Source: Escherichia coli
GTDB lineage: Bacteria; Pseudomonadota; Gammaproteobacteria; Enterobacterales; Enterobacteriaceae
Assembly (NCBI RefSeq): GCF_013315695.1
Contig: NZ_CP054353.1
Strand: one strand, 5' to 3'
Length of the DNA stretch: 64,000 nt
The notes below the pieces were generated by a model that did no database searches, was not told where the DNA came from, and saw nothing but the letters and a program-made list of their open reading frames with translations. Shown here in pieces: positions 893 to 36,520 of this stretch. Both the position numbers and the translations under genes were made by a program. Each line of letters starts with the position of its first letter. The first letter of the stretch is position 1.

Positions 893-3529
893 ATGTCATA
901 TCTGAATTTAAGACTTTACCAGCGAAACACACAGTGCTTGCATATTCGTAAGCATCGTTTGGCTGGTTTTTTTGTCCGGCTCTTTGTTGCCTGTGCTTTT
1001 GCCGCACAGGCACCTTTGTCATCTGCCGAACTCTATTTTAACCCGCGTTTTTTAGCGGATGATCCCCAGGCTGTGGCTGATTTATCGCGTTTTGAGAATG
1101 GGCAAGAATTACCGCCAGGGACGTATCGTGTCGATATCTATTTGAATAATGGTTATATGGCAACGCGTGATGTCTCATTTAATACGGGCGACAGCGAACA
1201 AGGGATTGTTCCCTGCCTGACACGCGCGCAACTTGCCAGTATGGGGCTGAATACGGCTTCTGTCTCCGGTATGAATCTGCTGGCGGATGATGCCTGCGTG
1301 CCATTAACCTCAATGATCCATGACGCTACTGCGCATTTAGATGTTGGTCAGCAGCGACTCAACCTGACGATCCCTCAGGCATTTATGAGTAATCGCGCGC
1401 GTGGTTATATTCCTCCTGAGTTATGGGATCCCGGTATTAATGCCGGATTGCTCAATTATAATTTCAGCGGAAATAGTGTACAGAATCGAATTGGGGGTAA
1501 CAGCCATTATGCATATTTAAACCTACAGAGTGGGTTAAATATTGGTGCGTGGCGTTTATGCGACAATACCACCTGGAGTTATAACAGTAGCGACAGTTCA
1601 TCAGGTAGCAAAAATAAATGGCAGCATATCAATACCTGGCTTGAGCGAGACATAATTCCGTTACGTTCCCGGCTGACGCTGGGTGATGGTTATACTCAGG
1701 GCGATATTTTCGATGGTATTAACTTTCGCGGCGCACAATTGGCCTCAGATGACAATATGTTACCCGATAGCCAAAGAGGATTTGCCCCGGTGATCCACGG
1801 TATTGCTCATGGTACTGCACAGGTCACTATTAAACAAAATGGGTATGACATTTATAATAGTACGGTGCCACCGGGGCCTTTTACCATCAACGATATCTAT
1901 GCCGCAGGTAATAGTGGTGACTTGCAGGTAACGATTAAAGAGGCTGACGGCAGTACGCAGATTTTTACCGTACCCTATTCGTCAGTCCCGCTTTTGCAGC
2001 GTGAAGGGCATACACGTTATTCCATTACGGCAGGAGAATACCGTAGTGGAAATGCGCAGCAGGAAAAACCCCGCTTTTTCCAGAGTACATTACTCCACGG
2101 CCTTCCGGCTGGCTGGACAATATATGGTGGAACGCAACTGGCGGATCGTTATCGTGCGTTTAATTTCGGTATCGGGAAAAATATGGGGGCACTGGGCGCT
2201 CTGTCTGTGGATATGACGCAGGCTAATTCCACACTTCCCGATGACAGTCAGCATGACGGACAATCGGTGCGTTTTCTTTATAACAAATCGCTCAATGAGT
2301 CAGGCACGAATATTCAGTTAGTGGGTTACCGTTATTCGACCAGTGGGTATTTTAATTTCGCTGATACAACATACAGTCGAATGAATGGCTACAACATCGA
2401 AACACAGGATGGAGTTATTCAGGTTAAGCCGAAATTCACCGACTATTACAATCTCGCTTATAACAAACGCGGGAAATTACAACTCACCGTTACTCAGCAA
2501 CTCGGGCGCACATCAACACTGTATTTGAGTGGTAGCCATCAAACTTATTGGGGAACGAGTAATGTCGATGAGCAATTCCAGGCTGGATTAAATACTGCGT
2601 TCGAAGATATTAACTGGACGCTCAGCTATAGCCTGACGAAAAACGCCTGGCAAAAAGGACGGGATCAGATGTTAGCGCTTAACGTCAATATTCCTTTCAG
2701 CCACTGGCTGCGTTCTGACAGTAAATCTCAGTGGCGACATGCCAGTGCCAGCTACAGCATGTCACACGATCTCAACGGTCGGATGACCAATCTGGCCGGT
2801 ATATACGGTACGTTGCTGGAAGACAACGACCTCAGCTATAGCGTGCAAACCGGTTATGCCGGGGGAGGCGATGGAAATAGCGGAAGTACAGGCTACGCCA
2901 CGCTGAATTATCGCGGTGGTTACGGCAATGCCAATATCGGTTACAGCCATAGCGATGATATTAAGCAGCTCTATTACGGAGTCAGCGGTGGGGTACTGGC
3001 TCATGCCAATGGCGTAACGCTGGGGCAGCCGTTAAACGATACGGTGGTGCTTGTTAAAGCGCCTGGCGCAAAAGATGCAAAAGTCGAAAACCAGACAGGA
3101 GTGCGTACCGACTGGCGGGGTTATGCCGTGCTGCCTTATGCCACTGAATATCGGGAAAACAGAGTGGCGCTGGATACCAATACCCTGGCTGATAACGTCG
3201 ATTTAGATAATGCGGTCGCTAACGTTGTTCCCACCCGTGGGGCGATCGTGCGAGCAGAGTTTAAAGCGCGCGTTGGGATAAAACTGCTCATGACGCTAAC
3301 CCACAATAATAAGCCGCTGCTGTTTGGGGCGATGGTGACATCAGAGAGTAGCCAGAGTAGCGGCATTGTTGCGGATAATGGTCAGGTTTACCTCAGCGGA
3401 ATGCCTTTAGCGGGAAAAGTGCAGGTGAAATGGGGAGAAGAGGAAAATGCTCACTGTGTCGCCAATTATCAACTGCCACCAGAGAGTCAGCAGCAGTTAT
3501 TAACCCAGCTATCAGCTGAATGTCGTTAA
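893..3529 (+). CDS. fimD: Type 1 fimbrial outer-membrane usher FimD
   Basis: 878-aa uninterrupted ORF, recognised FimD sequence, position after fimC. Confidence 0.93.
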   Translation: MSYLNLRLYQRNTQCLHIRKHRLAGFFVRLFVACAFAAQAPLSSAELYFNPRFLADDPQAVADLSRFENGQELPPGTYRVDIYLNNGYMATRDVSFNTGDSEQGIVPCLTRAQLASMGLNTASVSGMNLLADDACVPLTSMIHDATAHLDVGQQRLNLTIPQAFMSNRARGYIPPELWDPGINAGLLNYNFSGNSVQNRIGGNSHYAYLNLQSGLNIGAWRLCDNTTWSYNSSDSSSGSKNKWQHINTWLERDIIPLRSRLTLGDGYTQGDIFDGINFRGAQLASDDNMLPDSQRGFAPVIHGIAHGTAQVTIKQNGYDIYNSTVPPGPFTINDIYAAGNSGDLQVTIKEADGSTQIFTVPYSSVPLLQREGHTRYSITAGEYRSGNAQQEKPRFFQSTLLHGLPAGWTIYGGTQLADRYRAFNFGIGKNMGALGALSVDMTQANSTLPDDSQHDGQSVRFLYNKSLNESGTNIQLVGYRYSTSGYFNFADTTYSRMNGYNIETQDGVIQVKPKFTDYYNLAYNKRGKLQLTVTQQLGRTSTLYLSGSHQTYWGTSNVDEQFQAGLNTAFEDINWTLSYSLTKNAWQKGRDQMLALNVNIPFSHWLRSDSKSQWRHASASYSMSHDLNGRMTNLAGIYGTLLEDNDLSYSVQTGYAGGGDGNSGSTGYATLNYRGGYGNANIGYSHSDDIKQLYYGVSGGVLAHANGVTLGQPLNDTVVLVKAPGAKDAKVENQTGVRTDWRGYAVLPYATEYRENRVALDTNTLADNVDLDNAVANVVPTRGAIVRAEFKARVGIKLLMTLTHNNKPLLFGAMVTSESSQSSGIVADNGQVYLSGMPLAGKVQVKWGEEENAHCVANYQLPPESQQQLLTQLSAECR

Positions 3530-3538
3530 GGGGGCGTG

Positions 3539-4069
3539 ATGAGAAACAAACCTTTTTATCTTCTTTGCGCTTTTTTGTGGCTGGCGGTAAGTCACGCTTT
3601 GGCTGCGGATAGCACGATTACTATCCGCGGCTATGTCAGAGATAATGGCTGTAGTGTGGCCGCTGAATCAACCAATTTTACTGTTGATCTGATGGAAAAC
3701 GCGGCGAAGCAATTTAACAACATTGGCGCGACGACTCCTGTCGTTCCATTTCGTATTTTGCTGTCACCCTGTGGTAACGCCGTTTCTGCCGTAAAGGTTG
3801 GGTTTACTGGCGTTGCAGATAGCCACAATGCCAACCTGCTTGCACTTGAAAATACGGTGTCAGCGGCTGCGGGACTGGGAATACAGCTTCTGAATGAGCA
3901 ACAAAATCAGATACCCCTTAATGCCCCATCGTCCGCGATTTCGTGGACGACCCTGACGCCGGGTAAACCAAATACGCTGAATTTTTACGCCCGGCTAATG
4001 GCGACACAGGTGCCTGTCACTGCGGGGCATATCAATGCCACGGCTACCTTCACTCTTGAATATCAGTAA
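3539..4069 (+). CDS. fimF: Type 1 fimbrial minor subunit FimF
   Basis: 176 aa from the ATG at 3539 (the track ORF begins at a GTG one codon upstream); signal peptide; fim operon order. Confidence 0.9.
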
Positions 4070-11130: not shown

Positions 11131-11258
11131 ATTAAGAAGTCGCAATGAGTATTACTTTGTAAATTGCAGGGTATTGTTTAGCTATCTGTATAACCTGAAC
11201 GTGAGTACTCATTCTTCTCAGTGGCTATTTACCAATATAATTCGGTAATGACTCCAAC

Positions 11259-11762
11259 TTATTGATAGTGTTTTATGTTCAGATAATGCCCGATGACTTT
11301 GTCATGCAGCTCCACCGATTTTGAGAACGACAGCGACTTCCGTCCCAGCCGTGCCAGGTGCTGCCTCAGATTCAGGTTATGCCGCTCAATTCGCTGCGTA
11401 TATCGCTTGCTGATTACGTGCAGCTTTCCCTTCAGGCGGGATTCATACAGCGGCCAGCCATCCGTCATCCATATCACCACGTCAAAGGGTGACAGCAGGC
11501 TCATAAGACGCCCCAGCGTCGCCATAGTGCGTTCACCGAATACGTGCGCAACAACCGTCTTCCGGAGCCTGTCATACGCGTAAAACAGCCAGCGCTGGCG
11601 CGATTTAGCCCCGACATAGCCCCACTGTTCGTCCATTTCCGCGCAGACGATGACGTCACTGCCCGGCTGTATGCGCGAGGTTACCGACTGCGGCCTGAGT
11701 TTTTTAAGTGACGTAAAATCGTGTTGAGGCCAACGCCCATAATGCGGGCTGTTGCCCGGCAT
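11259..11762 (-). CDS. insB: IS1 InsB (transposase made as an InsAB fusion by -1 frameshift)
   Basis: 167-aa ORF overlapping insA in the -1 frame. Confidence 0.9.
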
Positions 11763-11956
11763 CCAACGCCATTCATGGCCATATCAATGATTTTCTGGTG
11801 CGTACCGGGTTGAGAAGCGGTGTAAGTGAACTGCAGTTGCCATGTTTTACGGCAGTGAGAGCAGAGATAGCGCTGATGTCCGGCGGTGCTTTTGCCGTTA
11901 CGCACCACTCCGTCAGTAGCTGAACAGGAGGGACAGCTGATAGAAACAGAAGCCAC
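11681..11956 (-). CDS. insA: IS1 InsA
   Basis: 91-aa zinc-finger ORF at the IRL side of IS1. Confidence 0.9.
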
Positions 11957-12011
11957 TGGAGCACCTCAAAAACACCATCATACGCTAAATCAGTAAGTTG
12001 GCAGCATCACC

Positions 12012-12418
12012 ATATAATTCCATTCACCATTTTTTAATTCAAACAGCTCTGGAAGAGATGACGGTTGCAGAGTCATACGTTTGAGTGGTGCATTTTCATC
12101 ACCCGGGATAACTTTATATCCCATTTTTGCATGGATCTCCGCTGTACCGGGATAGGCTTCTATACCAATTATTGGGTCATTACCCAACTCAATATTAGCA
12201 TTAAGTAATGCGGCAAGGGCGAATCCGGAAGAGTTTGCCACCCCTGAGACAGTCATTATCTGATCAATATAGATATCAATCCTTGGCTGCTCATTGGTCC
12301 ATCTTTTTGCCTGAGAAGTTGGAAGAGTTGAAATATATCCTATCGTGGTTCCGGCGTAACCTGGAACATTGCAGCCAGGGCCTAATGTTATTTCATGAAC
12401 TGTATAGTCCTCAACAGG
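12012..12418 (-). pseudogene. yjiC: yjiC 3' fragment (about codons 142-273), cut by IS1 at both ends
   Basis: Open frame on the minus strand across the whole interval; joins in frame with the 5' fragment at 26432-26854 through the shared 9-mer; natural stop would lie at 11225-11227 beyond the IS1; assignment to yjiC is by synteny (between uxuR and iraD) and by the reconstructed length of 276 codons. Confidence 0.75.
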
Positions 12419-12433
12419 GGTAATGACTCCAAC

Positions 12434-12937
12434 TTACTGATAGTGTTTTATGTTCAGATAATGCCCGATGACCTTGTCATGCAGCTCCACCGATTTTGAG
12501 AACGACAGTGACTTCCGTCCCAGCCTTGCCAGATGTTGTCTCAGATTCAGATTATGTCGCTCAATGCGCTGAGTGTAACGCTTGCTGATAACGTGCAGCT
12601 TTCCCTTCAGGCGTGATTCATACAGCGGCCAGCCATCCGTCATCCATACCACGACCTCAAAGGCCGACAGCAGGCTCAGAAGACGCTCCAGTGTGGCCAG
12701 AGTGCGTTCACCGAAGACGTGCGCCACAACCGTCCTCCGTATCCTGTCATACGCGTAAAACAGCCAGCGCTGACGTGATTTAGCACCGACGTAGCCCCAC
12801 TGTTCGTCCATTTCAGCGCAGACAATCACATCACTGCCCGGTTGTATGCGCGAGGTTACCGACTGCGGCCTGAGTTTTTTAAGTGACGTAAAACCGTGTT
12901 GAGGCCAACGCCCATAATGCGTGCACTGGCGCGACAT
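12434..12937 (-). CDS. insB: IS1 InsB (variant)
   Basis: 167-aa ORF. Confidence 0.9.
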
Positions 12938-13131
12938 CCGACGCCATTCATGGCCATATCAATGATTTTCTGGTGCTTACCGGGCTGAGAGGCGGTATAA
13001 GTGAACTGTAGTTGCCATGTTTTACGGCAATGAGAGCAGAGATAGCGCTGATGTCCGGCAGTGCTTTTGCCGTTACGCACCACGCCTTCAGTAGCGGAGC
13101 AGGAAGGACATCTGATGGAAATGGAAGCCAC
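12856..13131 (-). CDS. insA: IS1 InsA (variant)
   Basis: 91-aa ORF, about 90% identical to the standard copy. Confidence 0.9.
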
Positions 13132-13456
13132 GCAAGCACCTTAAAATCACCATCATACACTAAATCAGTAAGTTGGCAGCATTACCAAATTTTAATTACA
13201 CTTAAGGTGTATATTTTCTATGCAAGCCATCAATTAAAGAGGTGTAATGTGCTGATGACTATTTGTAATCGTTATACATTCTGACCTGGAGTCAGAAGGT
13301 ATTTCTCTGTCGGTGTGTTCACAGGCAGTGTGGTTGATTACATGAAATTCAGTACATTTGCAGTCTCGTTGCCCTTCTCGCCTGCCTTTCGTCATTACCG
13401 ACGGTATTGAATTTCGTTTTGCCCGTTGGGGTTCTCCGGACAAGGAGTTGTTTGTT

Positions 13457-14689
13457 ATGCCACGTTTTTTTGCCCGCCATGCCGCCACGCTGTTTTTCCC
13501 GATGGCGTTGATTTTGTATGATTTTGCCGCGTACCTGTCGACGGACCTGATTCAGCCGGGGATCATTAATGTGGTCCGTGATTTTAATGCCGATGTCAGT
13601 CTGGCCCCGGCAGCCGTCAGTCTCTATCTCGCGGGCGGTATGGCGTTACAGTGGCTGCTGGGGCCGCTTTCCGACAGGATTGGCCGCAGGCCGGTGCTGA
13701 TTACCGGGGCGCTAATATTTACCCTTGCCTGCGCTGCGACAATGTTCACAACGTCTATGACACAGTTTCTTATCGCGCGTGCAATTCAGGGCACCAGTAT
13801 CTGTTTTATTGCCACCGTTGGTTATGTCACGGTGCAGGAGGCGTTCGGCCAGACAAAAGGGATCAGGTTGATGGCGATTATCACCTCCATCGTACTGATT
13901 GCGCCGATTATCGGCCCGCTTTCCGGCGCAGCTCTGATGCACTTTGTACACTGGAAAGTCCTTTTTGCCATCATTGCGATTATGGGTTTTATCTCATTTG
14001 TTGGCTTACTGCTGGCGATGCCAGAGACGGTGAAGCGCGGCGCGGTTTCATTTAGCGCCAAAAGCGTCTTGCGCGATTTTCGTAATGTCTTTTGCAATCG
14101 GCTGTTCCTCTTTGGTGCAGCAACCATCTCTTTAAGCTATATCCCAATGATGAGCTGGGTGGCTGTCTCGCCGGTGATCCTGATTGACGCAGGCGGCTTA
14201 ACGACCTCGCAGTTCGCCTGGACACAGGTTCCGGTATTCGGCGCGGTGATTGTCGCGAATGCCATCGTGGCGCGTTTCGTTAAAGATCCGACCGAACCGC
14301 GCTTTATCTGGCGTGCCGTACCCATTCAACTGGTTGGCCTCGCGCTGTTGATTATCGGCAATCTGCTGTCACCGCACGTCTGGCTGTGGTCGGTGCTGGG
14401 CACCAGTCTGTATGCTTTCGGGATTGGTTTGATTATCCCGACCTTATTCCGCTTTACGCTGTTTTCCAATAAATTACCGAAAGGGACCGTCTCCGCATCG
14501 CTGAATATGGTGATCCTGATGGTGATGTCTGTCTCGGTCGAAATCGGCCGCTGGCTGTGGTTTAACGGCGGTCGCTTGCCGTTTCATCTGTTAGCCGTCG
14601 TGGCGGGCCTTATCGTCGTTTTCACCCTGGCGGGATTGCTTAATCGCGTGCGCCAACATCAGGCTGCCGAGCTGGCGGAGGAGCGGTGA
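13457..14689 (+). CDS. mdtM: Multidrug efflux MFS transporter MdtM
   Basis: 410 aa from [13 protein letters not shown]; recognised MdtM; the track ORF extends 33 codons upstream. Confidence 0.9.
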
Positions 14690-14729
14690 TTTTTGCGCGA
14701 TCCTGCCGTCAGGCTCTATTCTTAACATT

Positions 14730-16010
14730 ATGAATAAACTCATTGAACTCAGACGCGCCAAAATGTTGGCGCTCTCTTTACTGCTTATCGCCGCTGCTAC
14801 CTTTGTCGTTACGCTGTTTTTGCCACCCAATTTTTGGGTGAGCGGTGTGAAGGCGATTGCTGAAGCGGCGATGGTCGGCGCGCTGGCAGACTGGTTTGCG
14901 GTGGTGGCGCTGTTTCGCCGCGTGCCGATTCCGATCATTTCTCGTCATACGGCGATTATCCCGCGTAATAAAGACCGGATTGGCGAAAATCTCGGTCAGT
15001 TCGTGCAGGAAAAATTTCTCGATACCCAATCGCTGGTGGCATTGATTCGACGTCACGAACCGGTGTTGTTGATTGGCAACTGGTTTAGTCAGCCAGAAAA
15101 CGCCCGCCGCGTTGGTCAGCATCTGTTGCAGATCATGAGTGGTTTTCTTGAACTGACCGATGATGCGCGTATTCAGCGCCTGCTTAAGCGCGCAGTCCAT
15201 CGGGCGATTGATAAGATCGATCTTTCCGGCACCAGTGCGTTGATGCTGGAGAGTATGACCAAAAACGATCGTCATCAGGTGCTGCTGGATACGCTGATCG
15301 CGCAGTTGATTGCTCTTCTCCAGCGCGATAAATCGCGCAAGTTTATTGCCCAGCAAATTGTTCGCTGGCTGGAGAGCGAGCATCCGCTGAAAGCCAAAAT
15401 TTTGCCTACTGAATGGCTGGGCGAACATAGCGCGGAGTTGGTTTCTGACGCGGTGAATTCTTTGCTTGATGATATCAGCCGCGATCGTGTACATCAGATC
15501 CGCCATGCGTTTGATCGCGCCACTTTTGCCCTGATCGACAAGTTGAAAAACGATCCGGAAATGGCAGCGCGAGCCGATGCCGTAAAAAGTTATCTGAAAG
15601 AAGATGAAGCTTTTAACCGCTATCTCAGTGAATTGTGGGGGGATTTACGGGAATGGCTGAAAGCGGATATCGACAGTGAAGATTCTCGTGTGAAAGAACG
15701 TATCGCGCGGGCGGGTCAATGGTTTGGCGAAACGTTAATTGCCGATGATGCCTTGCGGGCGTCGTTAAATGGTCACCTGGAACAAGCCGCGCACCGCGTC
15801 GCGCCTGAGTTTTCCGCATTCCTGACGCGCCACATCAGCGATACGGTAAAAAGCTGGGATGCGCGGGATATGTCGCGGCAAATAGAGTTAAATATCGGCA
15901 AAGATCTGCAGTTTATCCGTGTCAACGGTACGCTGGTCGGCGGTTGTATTGGGCTAATTTTGTATTTGCTGTCGCAGCTCCCGGCCTTATTCCCCCTCAG
16001 CAATTTTTAG
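14730..16010 (+). CDS. yjiN: DUF445 inner-membrane protein YjiN
   Basis: 426-aa ORF; sequence and synteny. Confidence 0.85.
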
Positions 16011-16125
16011 AAATCCATGAAAAACTAAGTGGCTAACCGCGAGAGAGATCAAATAAACCACACTAAAAGAATGGTAATAATGTGGCCTCTTTTCATTATC
16101 TCCCGTGGTACGGGGAAGGAAAATC

Positions 16126-18054
<1,929 letters not shown>

Positions 18055-18225
18055 AAGAGTATCTGTTTTTATTTCACTCCACGGTCGGCGTCATACAAAC
18101 CCGCAAGGCGTTGCAGGCAGCGGGCATGACTTTTCGCGTCAGCGATATTCCCCGTGATTTACGCGGCGGCTGCGGGTTATGCATTTGGCTGACCTGTCCG
18201 CCTGGCGAGGAAATTCAATGGGTGA

Positions 18226-19233
<1,008 letters not shown>

Positions 19234-19300
19234 CAGGCTGGCATGTTTCACCTTTTTGTTATTAACTTGTTAACAACAAAAATGACAAACAAGGTTAAAC

Positions 19301-20479
19301 ATGCCTTCGCCCTCGCATCCCGTAGAACGCTTTTCTTTCAGCACCGCGCTTTTCGGGATGCTGGTTCTGACCTTAGGTATGGGTTTAGGCCGCTTCCTTT
19401 ATACGCCTATGTTGCCCGTCATGATGGCGGAAGGATCGTTTTCATTTAGCCAGCTCTCGTGGATTGCCAGCGGCAACTATGCGGGGTATCTGGCTGGCAG
19501 TCTGCTATTTTCGTTTGGCGCATTTCACCAGCCATCGCGCCTGCGCCCATTTCTGTTGGCTTCTGCCCTAGCGAGCGGGTTGTTGATCCTCGCAATGGCA
19601 TGGTTGCTGCCATTTATTCTGGTGTTATTGATTCGCGTCCTGGCGGGTGTCGCCAGCGCCGGTATGCTGATTTTTGGTTCGACGCTGATTATGCAGCACA
19701 CGCGCCATCCTTTTGTGCTGGCAGCTTTGTTTTCTGGCGTTGGCATTGGCATCGCACTGGGCAATGAATATGTTCTGGCAGGCCTGCATTTTGACCTCTC
19801 CTCGCAAACGTTATGGCAAGGCGCCGGGGCGCTTTCTGGCATGATGCTGATTGCACTTACGCTTTTAATGCCCTCGAAAAAACACGCCATCACACCAATG
19901 CCATTGGCAAAAACGGAGCAACAGATAATGAGCTGGTGGTTACTGGCTATTCTGTACGGCCTGGCGGGATTTGGTTATATCATCGTCGCGACTTACCTGC
20001 CGCTCATGGCGAAAGATGCAGGCTCACCATTGTTAACCGCCCATCTCTGGACGTTAGTCGGCTTATCAATTGTGCCTGGTTGCTTTGGCTGGCTATGGGC
20101 AGCAAAACGTTGGGGGGCTTTGCCCTGCCTGACGGCGAATTTGCTGGTGCAGGCTATCTGTGTGCTGCTTACTCTCGCCAGCGACTCGCCTCTCTTGCTT
20201 ATCATCAGCAGTCTTGGTTTTGGCGGTACCTTTATGGGCACGACATCTCTGGTGATGACTATCGCCCGCCAACTGAGCGTACCGGGAAATCTCAATCTTT
20301 TAGGCTTTGTGACGCTCATTTACGGCATTGGACAAATCCTCGGCCCGGCGCTGACCAGTATGCTCGGCAATGGAACATCGGCGCTTGCCGGCGCCACTCT
20401 CTGCGGCGCGGCGGCGTTGTTTATTGCTGCGCTTATCAGCACAGTACAATTATTTAAGCTGCAAGTGGTCACTTCATGA
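19301..20479 (+). CDS. yjiJ: MFS-type transporter YjiJ
   Basis: 392-aa polytopic ORF; synteny. Confidence 0.85.
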
Positions 20480-20491
20480 GGAGTGTTTCCC

Positions 20492-21046
20492 TTACCACTC
20501 AAGAAATTCGACCGCAACCGTTGATGTCAGCCAGACCCCGTTTTCCGCTTGCCAGAAAGGGAGGCCTCGTTTCGCCATTTCCTGTGCTTTGACGGTTAAA
20601 ATAACCGGCGATCCGTGTCTTGCTCCCACTTTGCGTGCCGTTGCTTCATCAGCAGAGAGATGTACGTAGTGACGCTCACCTGCAATCAGCCCCTGTTTTT
20701 TTATCTCGTCAAGGAAACGGCTTGCCGTACCGTGGTAGAGAAACTGTGGCGGTGTTTTTTCGGCAAAGGAAATAGCGACCTGCGAAGTCGAATGCCCCTG
20801 AACCGCGCGGATGCACCTACCATCACTGGAATAACTAAAACGCTTTTTATCGCTGGTGGCAACCACGGTATCCAGCAATGCACGGGTTAACCGCTTGCCC
20901 GCTTTTTGGGCACAAAGTATGAGCTTATCGATATCCGCCCATCCTTCACGGTCCAGTACGATACCAATCGCCTCCGGTTTGTGTCGGAGGACAAAACTTA
21001 AAAACTTGCTCGTATCCGCCAGCTCTTTTTCGTTGTACTTTGCCAT
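20492..21046 (-). CDS. kptA: RNA 2'-phosphotransferase KptA (Tpt1 family)
   Basis: 184-aa ORF recognised as KptA. Confidence 0.88.
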
Positions 21047-21295
21047 CGCGTTTTCGTCCCTGGATTATCTGTTTTTTATTTACTATGTCATTGTCACTGG
21101 GTTTATGAATTTTCTGCAACTCAATCCTGCGTAGAACCTTTTCCACACAGCGTAATTTTACCGCTATGCAAAAAACGCATAGTCAGAAACATACTTGCAT
21201 TTTCCCCATACCCACATGGCTGATAAGGTTTTTCAGCTCCAGGAATTTTCCTGGCTCAAGCAACACACAAACACAAAAAAACAATGGGGATTGTT

Positions 21296-21979
21296 ATGAC
21301 ACAACAAGGGGATGCTGTAGCCGGGGAGCTGGCGACAGAAAAAGTGGGCATTAAAGGGTATCTGGCTTTTTTTCTCACCATAATCTTTTTTTCCGGTGTT
21401 TTTTCCGGGACAGACAGTTGGTGGCGCGTTTTTGATTTTTCCGTTCTGAACGGATCGTTTGGGCAACTGCCTGGTGCGAACGGAGCCACCACCTCGTTTC
21501 GCGGCGCGGGTGGCGCGGGGGCTAAAGATGGCTTTCTCTTTGCGCTGGAGCTGGCACCGTCAGTCATTCTCTCTCTGGGGATTATTTCAATTACCGATGG
21601 TCTTGGCGGATTACGCGCCGCGCAGCAGTTAATGACGCCAGTGCTAAAACCGTTGTTGGGCATTCCAGGGATCTGCTCGCTGGCGCTGATCGCTAACCTG
21701 CAAAACACCGATGCCGCCGCAGGTATGACCAAAGAGCTGGCGCAGGAAGGTGAAATTACCGAACGCGATAAAGTGATTTTCGCCGCATATCAAACCAGCG
21801 GTAGCGCCATTATCACCAACTACTTCTCTTCCGGCGTCGCGGTGTTTGCCTTTCTGGGCACGTCCGTAATCGTACCTTTAGCAGTCATCCTGGTGTTTAA
21901 ATTTGTCGGAGCCAACATTTTGCGCGTCTGGCTTAACTTCGAAGAACGTCGCAACCCAACGCAAGGAGCGCAAGCATGA
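21296..21979 (+). CDS. yjiH: Inner-membrane protein YjiH
   Basis: 227 aa from MTQQGDAV; overlaps the yjiG start. Confidence 0.85.
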   Translation: MTQQGDAVAGELATEKVGIKGYLAFFLTIIFFSGVFSGTDSWWRVFDFSVLNGSFGQLPGANGATTSFRGAGGAGAKDGFLFALELAPSVILSLGIISITDGLGGLRAAQQLMTPVLKPLLGIPGICSLALIANLQNTDAAAGMTKELAQEGEITERDKVIFAAYQTSGSAIITNYFSSGVAVFAFLGTSVIVPLAVILVFKFVGANILRVWLNFEERRNPTQGAQA

Positions 21980-22437
21980 CAACTCAGGTCCGCAAAAACG
22001 TCATGGATATGTTTATCGATGGTGCGCGCCGTGGCTTTACTATCGCCACGACCAACCTGCTGCCAAACGTGGTGATGGCGTTTGTCATCATTCAGGCGCT
22101 GAAAATTACCGGCCTGCTCGACTGGGTGGGGCATATCTGTGAACCCGTAATGGCGCTGTGGGGATTACCCGGTGAAGCGGCAACCGTCCTTTTAGCCGCA
22201 TTAATGAGTATGGGTGGCGCAGTCGGTGTTGCCGCCAGTCTGGCAACCGCTGGCGCATTAACCGGTCACGATGTCACCGTTTTACTGCCCGCGATGTATT
22301 TAATGGGCAACCCGGTGCAAAATGTCGGTCGCTGCCTGGGGACAGCCGAAGTGAATGCCAAATATTACCCGCATATCATTACGGTCTGCGTGATTAACGC
22401 ATTGCTGTCGATCTGGGTTATGCAGCTTATTGTTTAA
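21976..22437 (+). CDS. yjiG: Inner-membrane protein YjiG
   Basis: 153-aa ORF; synteny. Confidence 0.85.
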   Translation: MTTQVRKNVMDMFIDGARRGFTIATTNLLPNVVMAFVIIQALKITGLLDWVGHICEPVMALWGLPGEAATVLLAALMSMGGAVGVAASLATAGALTGHDVTVLLPAMYLMGNPVQNVGRCLGTAEVNAKYYPHIITVCVINALLSIWVMQLIV

Positions 22438-22449
22438 CAAGGAGTTACC

Positions 22450-23622
22450 ATGATTGATTATACCGCAGCCGGTTTTACCCTGCTGCAGGGAGCGCATTTG
22501 TATGCGCCGGAAGATCGGGGAATTTGCGATGTCCTCGTCGCTAACGGCAAAATTATCGCCGTTGCCAGTAATATCCCTTCTGACATTGTACCGGACTGCA
22601 CGGTTGTCGATCTCAGCGGGCAGATCCTCTGCCCAGGTTTTATTGATCAACACGTCCATTTGATTGGCGGTGGCGGCGAAGCAGGTCCCACGACGCGCAC
22701 GCCGGAAGTGGCGTTAAGTCGTCTGACGGAAGCAGGCGTCACGTCAGTGGTTGGTCTGCTGGGCACCGACTCTATCTCTCGCCACCCGGAATCCCTGCTC
22801 GCCAAGACCCGTGCGCTCAATGAAGAAGGCATCAGCGCCTGGATGCTGACCGGCGCTTATCATGTCCCTTCCCGCACTATTACGGGTTCCGTGGAAAAAG
22901 ACGTGGCGATTATCGATCGCGTGATTGGCGTGAAATGCGCCATCTCTGATCACCGTTCTGCCGCACCGGACGTTTATCACCTGGCTAATATGGCGGCGGA
23001 ATCCCGCGTTGGCGGTTTGCTCGGCGGTAAACCTGGCGTCACCGTGTTCCACATGGGCGACAGCAAAAAGGCGTTACAGCCTGTCTATGACCTGCTGGAA
23101 AACTGCGATGTGCCGATTAGCAAGTTGCTGCCGACCCACGTTAACCGCAACGTTCCGTTGTTTGAGCAGGCGCTGGAGTTCGCGCGCAAAGGCGGCACCA
23201 TCGATATCACCAGCAGCATTGACGAACCAGTCGCCCCTGCCGAAGGTATTGCCCGCGCCGTTCAGGCGGGTATTCCGCTGGCACGCGTCACCCTCAGCTC
23301 CGACGGCAACGGTAGCCAGCCGTTCTTCGATGACGAAGGGAATTTAACCCATATCGGTGTTGCCGGTTTTGAAACGTTGCTGGAAACCGTGCAGGTGCTG
23401 GTCAAAGATTATGATTTCAGTATCAGCGATGCCCTGCGCCCGCTCACCAGTAGCGTAGCCGGTTTCCTTAACCTGAGCGGGAAAGGCGAAATTCTGCCAG
23501 GCAATGACGCAGACTTACTGGTCATGACGCCAGAATTACGTATTGAGCAGGTATACGCTCGCGGCAAGCTGATGGTCAAAGACGGCAAAGCCTGCGTGAA
23601 AGGAACGTTTGAAACGGCATAA
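22450..23622 (+). CDS. iadA: Isoaspartyl dipeptidase IadA
   Basis: 390-aa ORF with an amidohydrolase-type metal-binding motif (HVHLIGGGG); recognised IadA. Confidence 0.9.
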   Translation: MIDYTAAGFTLLQGAHLYAPEDRGICDVLVANGKIIAVASNIPSDIVPDCTVVDLSGQILCPGFIDQHVHLIGGGGEAGPTTRTPEVALSRLTEAGVTSVVGLLGTDSISRHPESLLAKTRALNEEGISAWMLTGAYHVPSRTITGSVEKDVAIIDRVIGVKCAISDHRSAAPDVYHLANMAAESRVGGLLGGKPGVTVFHMGDSKKALQPVYDLLENCDVPISKLLPTHVNRNVPLFEQALEFARKGGTIDITSSIDEPVAPAEGIARAVQAGIPLARVTLSSDGNGSQPFFDDEGNLTHIGVAGFETLLETVQVLVKDYDFSISDALRPLTSSVAGFLNLSGKGEILPGNDADLLVMTPELRIEQVYARGKLMVKDGKACVKGTFETA

Positions 23623-23686
23623 ACGGTTGTCAGCCGCCCGAATGGACGTAGAATGCCCGCAAGGGCGGCTGACAGAGTAAAACGTA

Positions 23687-24598
23687 ATGGATGACTGTGG
23701 TGCGGTTTTGCATAATATTGAAACTAAATGGCTTTATGATTTTCTGACCCTGGAAAAATGCCGCAATTTTTCCCAGGCAGCAGTCAGTCGCAACGTCTCG
23801 CAACCGGCATTCAGCCGCCGCATCCGTGCGCTGGAACAGGCGATTGGCGTTGAATTGTTTAACCGCCAGGTGACGCCGCTGCAACTCTCGGAACAAGGTA
23901 AAATATTCCATTCGCAGATCCGCCATCTGTTGCAACAGTTAGAGAGCAACCTTGCAGAACTCCGTGGTGGCAGCGATTACGCGCAACGCAAAATTAAAAT
24001 AGCCGCTGCACACTCTCTTTCCCTCGGGCTGTTACCGTCCATTATCAGCCAGATGCCGCCGCTCTTTACCTGGGCAATTGAAGCTATTGATGTCGATGAA
24101 GCGGTCGATAAACTGCGTGAAGGGCAAAGTGACTGTATTTTTTCCTTTCACGACGAAGATTTGCTGGAAGCGCCGTTTGACCACATTCGCTTATTTGAAT
24201 CTCAATTGTTCCCCGTTTGCGCCAGTGACGAACACGGAGAAGCACTTTTTAACCTCGCGCAGCCACACTTTCCGTTACTGAATTACAGCCGCAACTCCTA
24301 CATGGGGCGATTGATTAATCGCACCCTGACGCGCCACAGTGAGTTAAGTTTCAGCACCTTTTTTGTCTCTTCGATGAGCGAGCTTTTAAAGCAGGTTGCC
24401 CTCGACGGCTGTGGGATTGCCTGGCTACCGGAATACGCCATCCAACAAGAAATTCGCAGCGGGCAGCTCGTTGTACTGAATCGGGACGAACTGGTGATCC
24501 CGATTCAGGCCTATGCATACCGGATGAATACCCGCATGAATCCAGTTGCCGAACGCTTCTGGCGTGAACTGCGCGAGCTGGAGATTGTGCTTAGCTGA
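23687..24598 (+). CDS. hypT: LysR-family hypochlorite-responsive regulator HypT (YjiE)
   Basis: 303-aa LysR-type ORF with N-terminal HTH; synteny. Confidence 0.88.
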
Positions 24599-24983
24599 CA
24601 TTCTCCAGCGTCGCACTGCGCCAACCGCCATTATCCCAGACCAGATCAAACGTTAGCGATTCATCGTCGTGATACAGCATTATCTCAAGGCTGATCGCCA
24701 GAGTGTGGCAGTACGCTTCTTTCAAATTAACCTGCAACGCCGCAATCCGTGGCTCATGAAATAACAGTGCAGAACGCAGCTGACGGCAATACCAGCTCTG
24801 GAGATGTTTGTCGCTCGGGTTATGCACTTGCCACTCGGGCATGCCTGAAACAAGTAATGACGGTAATGCCGAATGAGGAGAATTAAAAAGAGTGAGGAGA
24901 TCGCTGCATACTGATTTACGCAGCGGTGACGTTTTATTGCCTGAAATTTCAGGTAAAACAGCCTGAAGTGATTGGCGCATCAT
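24591..24983 (-). CDS. iraD: Anti-adaptor protein IraD (RpoS stabiliser)
   Basis: 130 aa from MMRQSLQAV; recognised IraD. Confidence 0.88.
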
Positions 24984-25455
24984 TTTGCGCACTCCTGACG
25001 TTTAGCAACATATGCGGCTTGCCCTGAACACCGGGCACCACTGTATTGATGCTCATTTTCCATAGCCATTCCCTTTTGTTCATTACATCCATGTCAGTCT
25101 GAGACAGGCCTGAATCCTGTCAGCAAAGTATAAAACCTTACTTGCCTATGAATATCTACTGACTTTTCAGGAAAAAAGTCATGATTTGATAAAAATCATC
25201 AAACTCAAAAAAAAACCGCTAGTATATTCTGAATATTCCGAATAGTTACGTAGATGAAAATACTTGTCACCACCGCTACTTAATTCCGGTGGGAAATTAT
25301 TTATTTCCGCATAATCAGCCATGTATTATTTAAAACAATTAGTTTGTAAATAATATAAATTGATAACATATCAAATACATCAAAAATACCATTCACAGGC
25401 ATTATTAATATAGACATCAATATAGCAACATCAAATTCCAGGTAATGACTCCAAC

Positions 25456-25959
25456 TTATTGATAGTGTTTTATGTTCAGATAATGCCCGATGACTTTGTC
25501 ATGCAGCTCCACCGATTTTGAGAACGACAGCGACTTCCGTCCCAGCCGTGCCAGGTGCTGCCTCAGATTCAGGTTATGCCGCTCAATTCGCTGCGTATAT
25601 CGCTTGCTGATTACGTGCAGCTTTCCCTTCAGGCGGGATTCATACAGCGGCCAGCCATCCGTCATCCATATCACCACGTCAAAGGGTGACAGCAGGCTCA
25701 TAAGACGCCCCAGCGTCGCCATAGTGCGTTCACCGAATACGTGCGCAACAACCGTCTTCCGGAGCCTGTCATACGCGTAAAACAGCCAGCGCTGGCGCGA
25801 TTTAGCCCCGACATAGCCCCACTGTTCGTCCATTTCCGCGCAGACGATGACGTCACTGCCCGGCTGTATGCGCGAGGTTACCGACTGCGGCCTGAGTTTT
25901 TTAAGTGACGTAAAATCGTGTTGAGGCCAACGCCCATAATGCGGGCTGTTGCCCGGCAT
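25456..25959 (-). CDS. insB: IS1 InsB
   Basis: 167-aa ORF. Confidence 0.9.
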
Positions 25960-26153
25960 CCAACGCCATTCATGGCCATATCAATGATTTTCTGGTGCGT
26001 ACCGGGTTGAGAAGCGGTGTAAGTGAACTGCAGTTGCCATGTTTTACGGCAGTGAGAGCAGAGATAGCGCTGATGTCCGGCGGTGCTTTTGCCGTTACGC
26101 ACCACCCCGTCAGTAGCTGAACAGGAGGGACAGCTGATAGAAACAGAAGCCAC
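25878..26153 (-). CDS. insA: IS1 InsA
   Basis: 91-aa ORF. Confidence 0.9.
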
Positions 26154-26431
26154 TGGAGCACCTCAAAAACACCATCATACACTAAATCAGTAAGTTGGCA
26201 GCATCACCCAAATTCCAATTAGTAATAAGATATGCTTTTAAATTGCATGCAAATAATTTTAAATGAGCGTTTTTTGATACTTTAGAGTGTTTCCCACCAT
26301 TTAATATCACTGTGTAGAGTTGATATCACTACAACAGAAACATGCATGTCATTTGTTTACTTCTCTTTTTACTACAGAAAAATTTATCTATTTTTCTAAG
26401 CATCAGTGAAATACTCATAAAGGTAACTATT

Positions 26432-26854
26432 ATGTCTATGCCATTAAGCAATGCCCTTCAGAGTCAAATTATTACAGATAATCACTTCCTTCATCATCCA
26501 AAAGTCGACAGTGAGTTAACACGTAAACATGAACGTGGACGCATGGATACGGAAAATATCTATCTTCCGCCTCTTGCTCGTGGCAATAACCATAATTACG
26601 ATGGAAAAAGCGTTGTCGAAATTAGAAAACTTGATATTAGTAAAGAGTCCTGGCCATTTAATTATGTGACAGAAACATGCAGAGAATTCAATGGTATTAC
26701 AACAACAGGACGTATGCTCTATCGAAACTTGAAAATCACCTCAGCTTTAGACGAAATATATGGTGGTATATGTAAAAAGGCGCATGCTGCCACAGAGTTA
26801 GCAGAAGGATTACGGCTAAATTTATTTATGAAAAGCCCTTTCGATCCTGTTGAG
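26432..26854 (+). pseudogene. yjiC: yjiC 5' fragment (codons 1-141), truncated by IS1; separated from its 3' half by the inversion
   Basis: ORF starting MSMPLSNALQ with an upstream aaaggt RBS-like motif; reading frame runs directly into the IS1 inverted repeat at 26855; last three codons (cct gtt gag) are the 9-bp target sequence. Confidence 0.75.
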
Positions 26855-26909
26855 GGTAATGCTGCCAACTTACTGATTTAGTGTATGATGGTGATTTTAA
26901 GGTGCTTGC

Positions 26910-27185
26910 GTGGCTTCCATTTCCATCAGATGTCCTTCCTGCTCCGCTACTGAAGGCGTGGTGCGTAACGGCAAAAGCACTGCCGGACATCAGCGCTATC
27001 TCTGCTCTCATTGCCGTAAAACATGGCAACTACAGTTCACTTATACCGCCTCTCAGCCCGGTAAGCACCAGAAAATCATTGATATGGCCATGAATGGCGT
27101 CGGATGTCGCGCCAGTGCACGCATTATGGGCGTTGGCCTCAACACGGTTTTACGTCACTTAAAAAACTCAGGCCGCAGTCGGTAA
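26910..27185 (+). CDS. insA: IS1 InsA (variant)
   Basis: 91-aa ORF. Confidence 0.9.
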
Positions 27186-27607
27186 CCTCGCGCATACAAC
27201 CGGGCAGTGATGTGATTGTCTGCGCTGAAATGGACGAACAGTGGGGCTACGTCGGTGCTAAATCACGTCAGCGCTGGCTGTTTTACGCGTATGACAGGAT
27301 ACGGAGGACGGTTGTGGCGCACGTCTTCGGTGAACGCACTCTGGCCACACTGGAGCGTCTTCTGAGCCTGCTGTCGGCCTTTGAGGTCGTGGTATGGATG
27401 ACGGATGGCTGGCCGCTGTATGAATCACGCCTGAAGGGAAAGCTGCACGTTATCAGCAAGCGTTACACTCAGCGCATTGAGCGACATAATCTGAATCTGA
27501 GACAACATCTGGCAAGGCTGGGACGGAAGTCACTGTCGTTCTCAAAATCGGTGGAGCTGCATGACAAGGTCATCGGGCATTATCTGAACATAAAACACTA
27601 TCAGTAA
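27104..27607 (+). CDS. insB: IS1 InsB (variant)
   Basis: 167-aa ORF; TTAAAAAAC frameshift motif at 27149-27157. Confidence 0.9.
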
Positions 27608-27805
27608 GTTGGAGTCATTACCCGACAGCGAGGTGTTTAGTGTGCCATGTCAGGCGAGAAATTCTATTGGATGAATCAAGTCCAACTTACTCATTGTCAA
27701 TTTCATGGTTGATTATTCGAAACGTGATGCTATTTCCAACATCAACGCTATAATTGCAGAATAATTGTAGATACATTTTTGTATATACAATTAGGGATGG
27801 CAATT

Positions 27806-28082
27806 ATGCCAATGGAGTTTGAATGGGATGAAAACAAGGCCAAAAGTAATCGGGTGAAACATGGCATCCGCTTTGAAGATGCGGTGTTATTGTTTGATGA
27901 TCCACAACATTTGTCACAGCAAGAACGCATAGAAAACGGTGAGTATCGCTGGCAGACATTACGGCATCGTGGTTATTCTGGTTGCGCATACCATCCGTTT
28001 CGAAAGCGGAAATGAAATTATTCGAATCATCAGTGCACGAAAAGCAGATCGTAAAGAGAGGAATCGCTATGAGCATGGTTAA
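27806..28082 (+). pseudogene. BrnT-like (DUF497) ribonuclease toxin gene, apparently frameshifted
   Basis: N-terminal MPMEFEWDENKAKSNRVKHGIRFEDAVLLFDDPQ in one frame ends after QTL; the conserved C-terminal IRIISARKA motif continues in another frame from about 27963 to the stop at 28080-28082; agggatgg upstream of the ATG. Confidence 0.7.
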
Positions 28083-32151: not shown

Positions 32152-33813
32152 ATGTTAAAACGTATCAAAATTGTGACCAGCTTACTGCTGGTTTTGGCCG
32201 TTTTTGGCCTTTTACAACTGACATCAGGCGGTCTGTTCTTTAATGCCTTAAAGAATGACAAAGAAAATTTCACTGTTTTACAAACCATTCGCCAGCAGCA
32301 ATCCACGCTGAATGGCAGCTGGGTCGCGTTGTTGCAGACGCGTAACACCCTCAACCGCGCGGGTATCCGCTACATGATGGATCAGAATAATATTGGTAGC
32401 GGTTCAACCGTTGCTGAGCTGATGGAGAGTGCCAGTATTTCGCTGAAACAGGCGGAAAAAAACTGGGCGGATTACGAAGCGTTGCCGCGTGACCCGCGTC
32501 AGAGCACCGCCGCAGCGGCAGAGATCAAACGTAATTACGATATTTATCACAATGCGCTGGCGGAGCTGATCCAACTGTTAGGTGCAGGCAAAATCAACGA
32601 GTTCTTTGATCAGCCGACCCAGGGATATCAGGACGGTTTCGAGAAGCAGTATGTGGCTTACATGGAGCAAAACGATCGGCTCTATGATATCGCCGTCAGC
32701 GATAATAATGCCTCCTACAGCCAGGCGATGTGGATTCTGGTGGGCGTGATGATCGTCGTACTGGCGGTCATCTTCGCCGTCTGGTTCGGTATTAAAGCCT
32801 CGCTGGTAGCGCCAATGAATCGCCTGATTGACAGCATTCGTCATATTGCAGGCGGCGATCTGGTGAAACCGATTGAGGTGGATGGCTCTAATGAGATGGG
32901 GCAACTGGCAGAGAGTTTGCGCCATATGCAGGGAGAGCTGATGCGTACCGTCGGTGATGTGCGCAACGGGGCCAATGCCATTTATAGCGGTGCCAGCGAA
33001 ATCGCCACCGGCAATAACGATCTCTCTTCGCGCACCGAGCAACAGGCCGCTTCGCTGGAAGAGACGGCAGCCAGCATGGAGCAACTGACCGCAACGGTGA
33101 AACAGAACGCCGAGAATGCGCGCCAGGCCAGCCACCTGGCGTTAAGTGCTTCTGAAACGGCGCAACGTGGCGGCAAAGTGGTGGATAACGTAGTACAGAC
33201 TATGCGCGATATCTCCACCAGCTCGCAGAAAATCGCCGATATTATCAGCGTAATTGACGGCATTGCCTTCCAGACCAATATTCTGGCTTTGAACGCGGCG
33301 GTTGAAGCAGCGCGTGCGGGTGAGCAAGGGCGCGGTTTTGCGGTGGTTGCGGGAGAAGTGCGTAATCTGGCCCAGCGTAGCGCCCAGGCGGCTCGTGAAA
33401 TTAAAAGCCTGATTGAAGACTCGGTGGGGAAAGTGGATGTTGGCTCTACGCTGGTCGAAAGCGCCGGGGAAACAATGGCGGAGATTGTCAGTGCTGTGAC
33501 CCGCGTGACGGACATTATGGGCGAAATAGCTTCTGCTTCTGATGAGCAGAGCCGTGGTATCGATCAGGTTGGCTTAGCGGTCGCTGAGATGGACCGGGTA
33601 ACTCAACAGAACGCTGCGCTGGTGGAAGAATCTGCCGCCGCCGCCGCGCTGGAAGAGCAGGCCAGTCGCCTGACCGAAGCTGTGGCAGTGTTCCGGATTC
33701 AGCAACAGCAGCAACATCAGCGTGAAACATCGGCTGTGGTAAAAACCGTGACGCCAGCTGCGCCGCGTAAAATGGCCGTAGCAGATAGCGGGGAGAACTG
33801 GGAAACGTTTTAA
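32152..33813 (+). CDS. tsr: Serine chemoreceptor Tsr (methyl-accepting chemotaxis protein I)
   Basis: 553-aa ORF with HAMP and MCP signalling domains, C-terminal NWETF pentapeptide; recognised Tsr. Confidence 0.93.
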
Positions 33814-33821
33814 TCGCCATA

Positions 33822-33855
33822 AAAATGCCCGATAAGCAAAATGTTATCGGGCATA
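33822..33855. terminator. Putative bidirectional rho-independent terminator (tsr / lgoT convergent)
   Basis: Hairpin gcccgataa-gcaaaatg-ttatcgggc flanked by A/T runs. Confidence 0.55.
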
Positions 33856-33861
33856 GGGAGA

Positions 33862-35223
33862 TTAATCTTTCCGTGGGGCGTTGATCGGCTGACGAACCAG
33901 GAAGATGTACGTCAGTGCACCCGCCGCAGTGACGCAACCGCAGATGATTAGTGCCAGACGGAATGAATGGGTGGTATCAACAATAAAACCAGTAATGATC
34001 GGCGCGAAAGAGGCGCAGATGAAGCTGGCAAAGTTCTGGATACTGCCCACCGACGCCGTCATGCGAGAAGCAACTGCGACGTGGATCAAGCCCCAGCAGG
34101 ATGTTCCGGCAAAGTGAATACAAAACAGTGCCATGCCAATCAGCAGAACCGCTGTCATGGATGTTGTCGCTTGCGGTACGACCAGCGTAAAGGCGGCAGA
34201 ACAGAACATCCCGGCAATAATGCAGATCTTACGGCTTTTAATCGGAGCCATTCCCCCTTTGACCAGCCAGTCGGTAACGTAACCGTTGACCAGCATCCCG
34301 GCAGCCCCAAACAGGAAAGGGATAGCCGCCATCAATCCTGTGCTTTTTAAATCTAGGTTATAGGCTGTTTGCAGGTAACCAGGAAGCCAGGCCAGATACA
34401 GCCACGCAGTGTAGTTGATGCCACTGAATCCGAGCATCATTCCCCACATTGTGCGGTTACGGAACAGGCTGCGCCATTCGGCAAAACTGAGCGGATCTCG
34501 GCGGGCATTGACGCTACCTGCATTGAGATAAGCTTGTTCAACGGCAGTCAGTTCTACGTGCTCGCGGTTGCGATAGAGCATATACCAGCCGATGGCGAGA
34601 AAAATCCCCAGTACACCAATGGTAATAAACATCCCGCGCCAGCCCATCACCAGCATCATCGCCGCCAGAATCGGTGGGCTTACGGCAACGCCAATGGTAG
34701 AAGCTGCGTTGAAAAAGCCCATCGGGCGTCCGCGCTCTTTGATGTTGAACCAGTCGTTAATGACTTTTACACCGCATGGGTTCATCGGCGCTTCACCAAT
34801 CCCCATACCAATACGCACCAACACGAACTGCGTAAAGCTGTGCACCATGCCAGACATGGCCTGGAACAGTGACCAGAAGAACATCCCCAGTCCCAGCATC
34901 AGGCGTGGGCCTTTACGATCCAATAGTGGGCCGCAAGGAAGTTGCGCAATCCCGTAAGCGAGTGAAAACACGGAGAGCAAAGCGCCGATTTCGGTGGCAC
35001 TTAATCCCAATTCTTCACGAATCGTTAAATTTACTACCGACAGCGAACTGCGGTCGAGATAATTGATTACCGCCGCAAAAAATAATAACAACATGGCGGT
35101 GGCTTGAATGCGTTTAATTCGGGTACTGCGTTGAACTAATCCATCTGGTGGCACGGGAATATCTGCCGACGAAGATGGAGTAAATGAAGAACGCGGATCG
35201 ATGGTGATATTTTCTTTTTCCAC
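33862..35223 (-). CDS. lgoT: L-galactonate:H+ symporter LgoT (YjjL), MFS
   Basis: 453-aa MFS ORF recognised as YjjL. Confidence 0.88.
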   Translation of the reverse strand: MEKENITIDPRSSFTPSSSADIPVPPDGLVQRSTRIKRIQATAMLLLFFAAVINYLDRSSLSVVNLTIREELGLSATEIGALLSVFSLAYGIAQLPCGPLLDRKGPRLMLGLGMFFWSLFQAMSGMVHSFTQFVLVRIGMGIGEAPMNPCGVKVINDWFNIKERGRPMGFFNAASTIGVAVSPPILAAMMLVMGWRGMFITIGVLGIFLAIGWYMLYRNREHVELTAVEQAYLNAGSVNARRDPLSFAEWRSLFRNRTMWGMMLGFSGINYTAWLYLAWLPGYLQTAYNLDLKSTGLMAAIPFLFGAAGMLVNGYVTDWLVKGGMAPIKSRKICIIAGMFCSAAFTLVVPQATTSMTAVLLIGMALFCIHFAGTSCWGLIHVAVASRMTASVGSIQNFASFICASFAPIITGFIVDTTHSFRLALIICGCVTAAGALTYIFLVRQPINAPRKD

Positions 35224-35325
35224 GCCGGACTCCTATATTTATAATTTTAATTGTTTACGTAATTGTGCATTACGCAAGGTTGACATTAACGGCAGGTTAA
35301 AGTTTTAGGACTTTACTACCGCTCA

Positions 35326-36520
<1,195 letters not shown>

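Follow-up and report, generated by a model that had tools for sequence, protein, structure and literature searches.

IS1 copies divide yjiC and flank an inverted segment in an Escherichia coli chromosome

The insertion sequence (IS) IS1 is said to rearrange the very molecule in which it resides, either by adjacent deletion or by duplicative inversion, as Turlan and Chandler reportedly described in EMBO J in 1995. Such intramolecular rearrangements are the closest counterpart of the locus described here, in which the gene yjiC has been broken up within a 64,000-nucleotide stretch of the Escherichia coli contig NZ_CP054353.1 (this whole stretch is called the window below). As in those rearrangements, an inverted pair of identical IS1 copies brackets an inverted segment, the 9-bp target copies stand in inverted orientation, and the flanks of the donor element are split between the two copies; unlike them, this is a natural chromosomal case that involves an IS1F-type element, and we infer its one-step route.

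Strain K-12 provides reference points for both the gene and the element. The yjiC gene rebuilt from the window has the same start and stop as K-12 YjiC (b4325; 276 amino acids), with 95.3% nucleotide and 93.8% amino acid identity, and the same ancestral neighbors, namely, ytiC, ytiD, idlP, and iraD on one side and uxuR on the other. It differs in that the gene lies here in three pieces on two strands, from which the full protein cannot be made, and the K-12 locus has no IS1 and carries rpnD and yjiR beyond mdtM, where the window has IS1 and brnTA. The K-12 copy of IS1F, located next to fecI, differs from the IS1F-type copies in the window in having an internal stop, which shortens InsAB' to 162 amino acids, and a His-to-Pro change in InsA, and it hardly transposes (PMC12428005). 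A nearer relative of the gene itself is the yjiC-IS1A allele of strains AVS0575 and EC6622 (WP_000062572.1 and WP_001565430.1; 280 amino acids), which carries an IS1 at the same site near its 3' end, with the same target duplication (ATATAATTC) and a nearly identical coding sequence; in contrast to the window, these strains, whose yjiC has been annotated as intact, have neither the mid-gene IS1F-type copy nor the inversion.

The pieces of yjiC

In this strain yjiC is a dead gene, dismantled by IS1. Its N-terminal piece (26432 to 26854, plus strand) is open over 423 nucleotides and holds codons 1 to 141, native nucleotides 1 to 423; as it stands, it reads into the adjoining IS1 (IS1-d below) and ends after eight foreign residues (GNAANLLI, then stop). 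The middle piece (12012 to 12418, minus strand) covers native nucleotides 415 to 821, beginning with codon 139 and ending at the second base of codon 274, and its reverse complement is open in one frame only. The last piece (11225 to 11243, minus strand) is a 19-nucleotide tail with native nucleotides 813 to 831 (N Y I G K stop), which includes the second copy of ATATAATTC and has no RefSeq annotation. The N-terminal and middle pieces share the 9-mer CCTGTTGAG (yjiC nucleotides 415 to 423), found at 26846 to 26854 on the plus strand and as its reverse complement at 12410 to 12418 (CTCAACAGG on the plus strand, CCTGTTGAG on the minus strand), and each copy directly abuts an IS1 end (at 26855 and 12419, respectively). 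Between the middle piece and the tail stands a standard 768-bp IS1 (11244 to 12011) with a perfect direct 9-bp duplication of ATATAATTC at 11235 to 11243 and 12012 to 12020. When the pieces are joined as the initial annotation had proposed (26432 to 26854, the reverse complement of 12012 to 12409, and the reverse complement of 11225 to 11234), they yield 831 nucleotides, that is, 276 codons and a TAG stop, with the expected C terminus EWNYIGK. A given pair of 9-mers matches by chance with a probability of 4^-9, about 4e-6, and because both pairs sit exactly against IS1 termini, chance is no reasonable reading of them.

The identity of the gene, which had been proposed from the reading frames, was borne out over its whole length. 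Residues 1 to 276 of the rebuilt protein span model positions 1 to 285 of 285 of Pfam family DUF2686 (PF10887; E = 8.5e-155, 514 bits), and the rebuilt gene aligns with K-12 b4325 without a gap (831 nucleotides against 831), with 39 nucleotide and 17 amino acid differences. It is closer still to the intact yjiC of HS30-1 (10 nucleotide and 2 amino acid differences) and to that of AVS0575, from which a single synonymous difference separates it across the 821 nucleotides that precede the 3' IS1 junction. Many strains have an annotated yjiC with 100% identity to the 423-nucleotide N-terminal piece, which has matches in 4,886 of 5,426 complete E. coli genomes, with a median of one yjiC match per genome, and the place of the gene between iraD/ytiC and uxuR returns once the inversion described below is reversed. 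The two DUF2686 fragments and the 19-nucleotide tail are one gene.

The product of yjiC is a DUF2686 protein of unknown function, and the gene is among those induced by azidothymidine (AZT) independently of LexA, where it is labeled "biofilm" (PMC11228462). No NCBIfam family was returned for the rebuilt protein, and a Protein Data Bank sequence search with it gave chance-level matches only (E of at least 0.09), with no solved homologue found. A single-sequence AlphaFold2 model was discarded for its mean predicted local distance difference test score of 29.7.

Four IS1 copies, an inversion, and the order of events

The initial annotation had attributed the disruption to two IS1 insertions; the gene is indeed broken at two points, but the interval carries four IS1 copies. 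All are 768 bp long with terminal inverted repeats GGTAATG.../...CATTACC. Two are of the IS1A type and are simple insertions with direct duplications: IS1-a (11244 to 12011, minus strand), which is the copy at yjiC codon 274 flanked by ATATAATTC, and IS1-c (25441 to 26208, minus strand), flanked by CAAATTCCA at 25432 to 25440 and 26209 to 26217. The other two, IS1-b (12419 to 13186, minus strand) and IS1-d (26855 to 27622, plus strand), are of the IS1F type; repeat mapping showed them to be mutually inverted, with all 768 positions identical. Two positions distinguish IS1-a from IS1-c, and each of these copies shows about 70 differences from IS1-b and IS1-d. IS1-a, IS1-c, and IS1-d each encode a 91-residue InsA, an A6C frameshift site (AAAAAAC) at position 307, and a 232-residue fused InsAB', and IS1-b is identical to IS1-d. 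The IS1F-type pair differs from K-12 IS1F at 5 nucleotides (763 of 768 identical). Sequence of this type was found in 4,515 genomes with a subtype-specific 120-nucleotide probe and at an identity of at least 99% in 4,389 of the records searched.

Whereas IS1-a and IS1-c have direct duplications, IS1-b and IS1-d share the 9-mer CCTGTTGAG between them in inverted orientation, one copy adjoining the left end (IRL) of IS1-d and the other the right end (IRR) of IS1-b. Their remaining ends carry the ancestral flanks of a single element: the IRL of IS1-b keeps the mdtM-side flank (AAATTTTAA, plus strand), and the IRR of IS1-d keeps the brnT-side flank (CGACAGCGA). The junction strings are GATCCTGTTGAGGGTAATGCTGCC and GGAGTCATTACCCCTGTTGAGGAC. 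A resident IS1 lies between brnT and mdtM in HS30-1 and EC6622, with the flanks TTAAAATTT on one side and CGACAGCGA on the other, and the window divides these flanks, with the mdtM side on IS1-b and the brnT side on IS1-d. The HS30-1 resident copy matches IS1-b and IS1-d at 766 of 768 positions, and the EC6622 copy differs from them at one, position 190, where IS1-b and IS1-d have the same base.

The inversion itself, also part of the initial annotation, is evident relative to K-12, HS30-1, AVS0575, and EC6622, all of which have the gene order mdtM, yjiN ... hypT, iraD, ytiD, ytiC, yjiC, uxuR. In the window, uxuR and the 3' part of yjiC keep their orientation, and the block from mdtM to yjiC codon 141 (13187 to 26854) is reversed (blastn). 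This segment is 13,668 bp long, or about 12.9 kb of native sequence after removal of IS1-c (blastn against AVS0575, HS30-1, and EC6622). It contains, with gene names taken from the annotation of strain AF3, the upstream region of mdtM, yjiN, yjiM, yjiL, ytiA, yjiK, yjiJ, kptA, yjiH, yjiG, iadA, hypT, iraD, idlP, ytiD, ytiC, and yjiC codons 1 to 141.

The EC6622 locus represents exactly the state before the event: apart from IS1-a its yjiC is whole, and it shares with the window the frameshifted brnT and the IS1 transposase (WP_223409538.1). We simulated a duplicative inversion of this locus with the resident IS1 as donor and CCTGTTGAG at yjiC nucleotides 415 to 423 as target. With IS1-c and one copy of its duplication removed, the simulated product aligned with the window in a single block of 22,778 bp, without gaps and at 99.81% identity, compared with three alignment blocks, the middle one reversed, for the unrearranged EC6622 locus. 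The mid-gene IS1 is a second copy of an IS1F-type element already resident 13.2 kb away, not an unrelated insertion, and we regard it as practically certain that a genuine yjiC was broken and inverted by IS1.

Among the complete genomes, two carry the full arrangement, AF3 (NZ_OZ547117.1; blood culture, UK) and MSB1_4I (NZ_LR898874.1; rectal swab, Australia), and in both of them the two larger pieces carry the RefSeq label "DUF2686 family protein, incomplete" (partial pseudogenes). Over 25.4 kb, 6 mismatches and IS1-c distinguish the window from AF3; IS1-c is absent from AF3 and MSB1_4I alike, and no uninterrupted match across it was found in any complete genome searched. AVS0575 and EC6622 have IS1-a too, again with ATATAATTC duplicated; with 189 records reaching 80% coverage or more of a junction query, the number of complete genomes that share it is put at about 187, not counting the two full matches. 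There the insertion puts MVMLPTY in place of the last three residues, IGK; RefSeq annotates the resulting 280-residue yjiC-IS1A product as an intact DUF2686 protein. Because it is shared by so many genomes and its product is still called intact, the IS1-a break is older and clade-wide and does not obviously inactivate yjiC. The nested distribution among strains gives the order of events: IS1-a first, across the clade; then the IS1F-type copy and the inversion, in three strains; and finally IS1-c, in this strain only. The description of the disruption as recent therefore fits the mid-gene break (2 of 5,426 complete genomes, with one synonymous base separating the rebuilt gene from the AVS0575 allele over 821 nucleotides) and does not fit the older 3' break at IS1-a.

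One step or two

The proposed sequence of events begins with an IS1A-type element that made a simple insertion at codon 274, duplicating ATATAATTC and leaving a 280-residue frame that is still found in many strains. The second and inactivating step would have been the replicative transposition of an intact IS1F-type element, located between brnT and mdtM 13.2 kb away on the same chromosome, into yjiC at CCTGTTGAG. In one go, this would have produced a second, inverted IS copy and turned around the stretch between donor and target; of the two 9-bp target copies, now inverted relative to each other, one would have come to lie within the inverted block and the other beyond it. A further IS1A-type copy, IS1-c, inserted last, upstream of the N-terminal fragment.

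We lean slightly toward a single duplicative inversion for the mid-gene event, rather than insertion followed by recombination, on grounds of parsimony, the failure to see an intermediate, and the state of the known carriers: all three (the window strain, AF3, and MSB1_4I) have the inverted form. A 1,598-nucleotide synthetic query for the un-inverted intermediate (N-terminal yjiC, IS1, C-terminal yjiC) gave no uninterrupted high-identity match among the 5,426 complete genomes, a result to be read against only three known carriers. Its best rows were composites of three to four pieces at no more than 96.7% identity; the search merges nearby pieces, and the 217 places at 80% coverage or above were mostly IS1-a beside an otherwise whole yjiC. 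The top row, from strain DAX4, was rejected, being an IS1-associated deletion instead. The movement of an intact IS1F-type element at this locus is compatible with the near immobility of K-12 IS1F and with the retention of the donor, as the donor copy was kept in all mutants examined for intrachromosomal IS1 transposition (PMC12428005).

The alternative that survives best, and that we consider quite possible though short of probable, is a two-step origin. An IS1F-type element would first have inserted simply at CCTGTTGAG, with a direct 9-bp duplication and in the opposite orientation to the resident copy beside mdtM, and RecA-dependent recombination between the inverted 768-bp copies would then have flipped the 13.7 kb between them. 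When the segment is un-inverted, it reads N-terminal yjiC, CCTGTTGAG, IS1, CCTGTTGAG, C-terminal yjiC, exactly as a normal simple insertion would; IS1-a and IS1-c, in the same interval, are plain simple insertions with direct duplications; and recombination would find a good substrate in a pair of identical 768-bp inverted repeats. This origin requires, however, that two events occurred and became fixed before the three carriers split, and no un-inverted form was seen among the complete genomes. IS1-b has also acquired private changes, 1 nucleotide in AF3 and a 14-bp deletion in MSB1_4I, and because these have not been homogenized against IS1-d, they suggest only infrequent exchange between the two copies.

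Several considerations nonetheless count against the single-step inversion that we favor. Insertion followed by homologous recombination gives an identical final structure, and the two routes cannot be told apart from sequence alone. IS1 more commonly yields simple insertions, which favors two steps. With three carriers, the lack of an intermediate is weak evidence, and the donor could be another identical IS1F-type copy elsewhere in the genome. The K-12 IS1F, moreover, barely transposes (PMC12428005), though that copy has an internal stop and the window copies have none.

That the inversion is an assembly artefact, with the 13.7-kb block placed the wrong way around and a simple IS1 insertion in yjiC as the true state, is very improbable. 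The identity of IS1-b and IS1-d would allow it, and the four junctions (mdtM to IRL, IRR to brnT, N-terminal yjiC to IRL, and IRR to C-terminal yjiC) are the same in either orientation of the block; against it, AF3 and MSB1_4I are independently assembled complete genomes from the UK and Australia that agree with the orientation in the window, and even then both breaks in yjiC would remain where they are. The notion that the pieces do not form one gene, with coincidental open frames and shared 9-mers or pieces from paralogues, has a negligible probability, being refuted by the full-length DUF2686 match, the gapless alignment with K-12 YjiC, the single synonymous difference from AVS0575, the median of one match per genome, and the restored synteny.

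The surroundings of yjiC and other features of the window

Three IS1 insertions have occurred here within about 1.3 kb of native sequence, and other strains show further independent endpoints. The G+C content is 40.0% in the rebuilt yjiC and 25.2% in the ytiC-yjiC spacer, compared with 51.4% in the window. IS1-c lies in that spacer, at a distance of 15 bp from the ytiC ATG and 223 bp from that of yjiC, upstream of both, and may separate the leader region of ytiC, ytiD, and idlP-iraD from upstream signals. A promoter scan upstream of yjiC found sites no more numerous than in shuffled sequence.

DAX4 is the deletion counterpart at the same locus, reading yjiA, IS1, yjiC: its IS1 (3001 to 3768 of locus L005) stands 15 bp upstream of the yjiC ATG and lacks a target duplication, and the entire stretch from brnTA to iraD is absent. 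BE311 has an IS1A 125 bp upstream of yjiC with the duplication CACCGTGTA (2900 to 3667 of locus L007). An IS1 lies between iraD and idlP in 2406_w1 (L008) and inside uxuR in DETEC-E480 (L009), and yjiC is annotated as frameshifted in both. Because of these independent IS1 endpoints nearby and the frameshifted alleles in other strains, yjiC looks dispensable and its region looks often hit by IS1. We see an evenly balanced case for the combined proposal that an intact IS1F-type element made the duplicative inversion of this natural isolate in a single step and that the AT-rich ytiC-yjiC-uxuR interval serves as a recurrent IS1 landing zone.

Beside IS1-d, the toxin gene brnT (about 27806 to 28082, placed from the AF3 annotation at 27139 to 27415 of locus L002) is annotated as frameshifted in AF3, MSB1_4I, HS30-1, and EC6622; brnA is intact where brnT is frameshifted, and AVS0575 has an intact brnT. 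Farther along, the minus strand carries four tandem tRNA-Leu(CAG) genes (46740 to 47184), of which two lie in identical 121-nucleotide units. The leuQPV locus of K-12 has three such genes, and the four-gene array looks like a copy-number variant. A 2,178-bp stretch with parts of tsr and lgoT (33147 to 35324) is present in the window and AF3 and missing from MSB1_4I. Just to its right lies ISKpn26 (IS5-like; roughly 35390 to 36380), at whose junction the tsr gene of MSB1_4I is truncated, an IS-adjacent deletion in that sibling strain.

The locus is an ordinary IS1-driven pseudogene with an inversion, which is textbook IS1 biology and a kind of decay already annotated in sibling genomes, and its significance beyond correct annotation is small. 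In this lineage, the 13.7-kb block from mdtM to iraD is inverted, and the order of events supplies three nested markers for an IS1-rich E. coli lineage. The locus also offers a clean natural example of an IS1-associated inversion whose pre-event state is preserved in a sister strain, and it demonstrates the movement, in the wild, of IS1F-type elements with an intact transposase gene.

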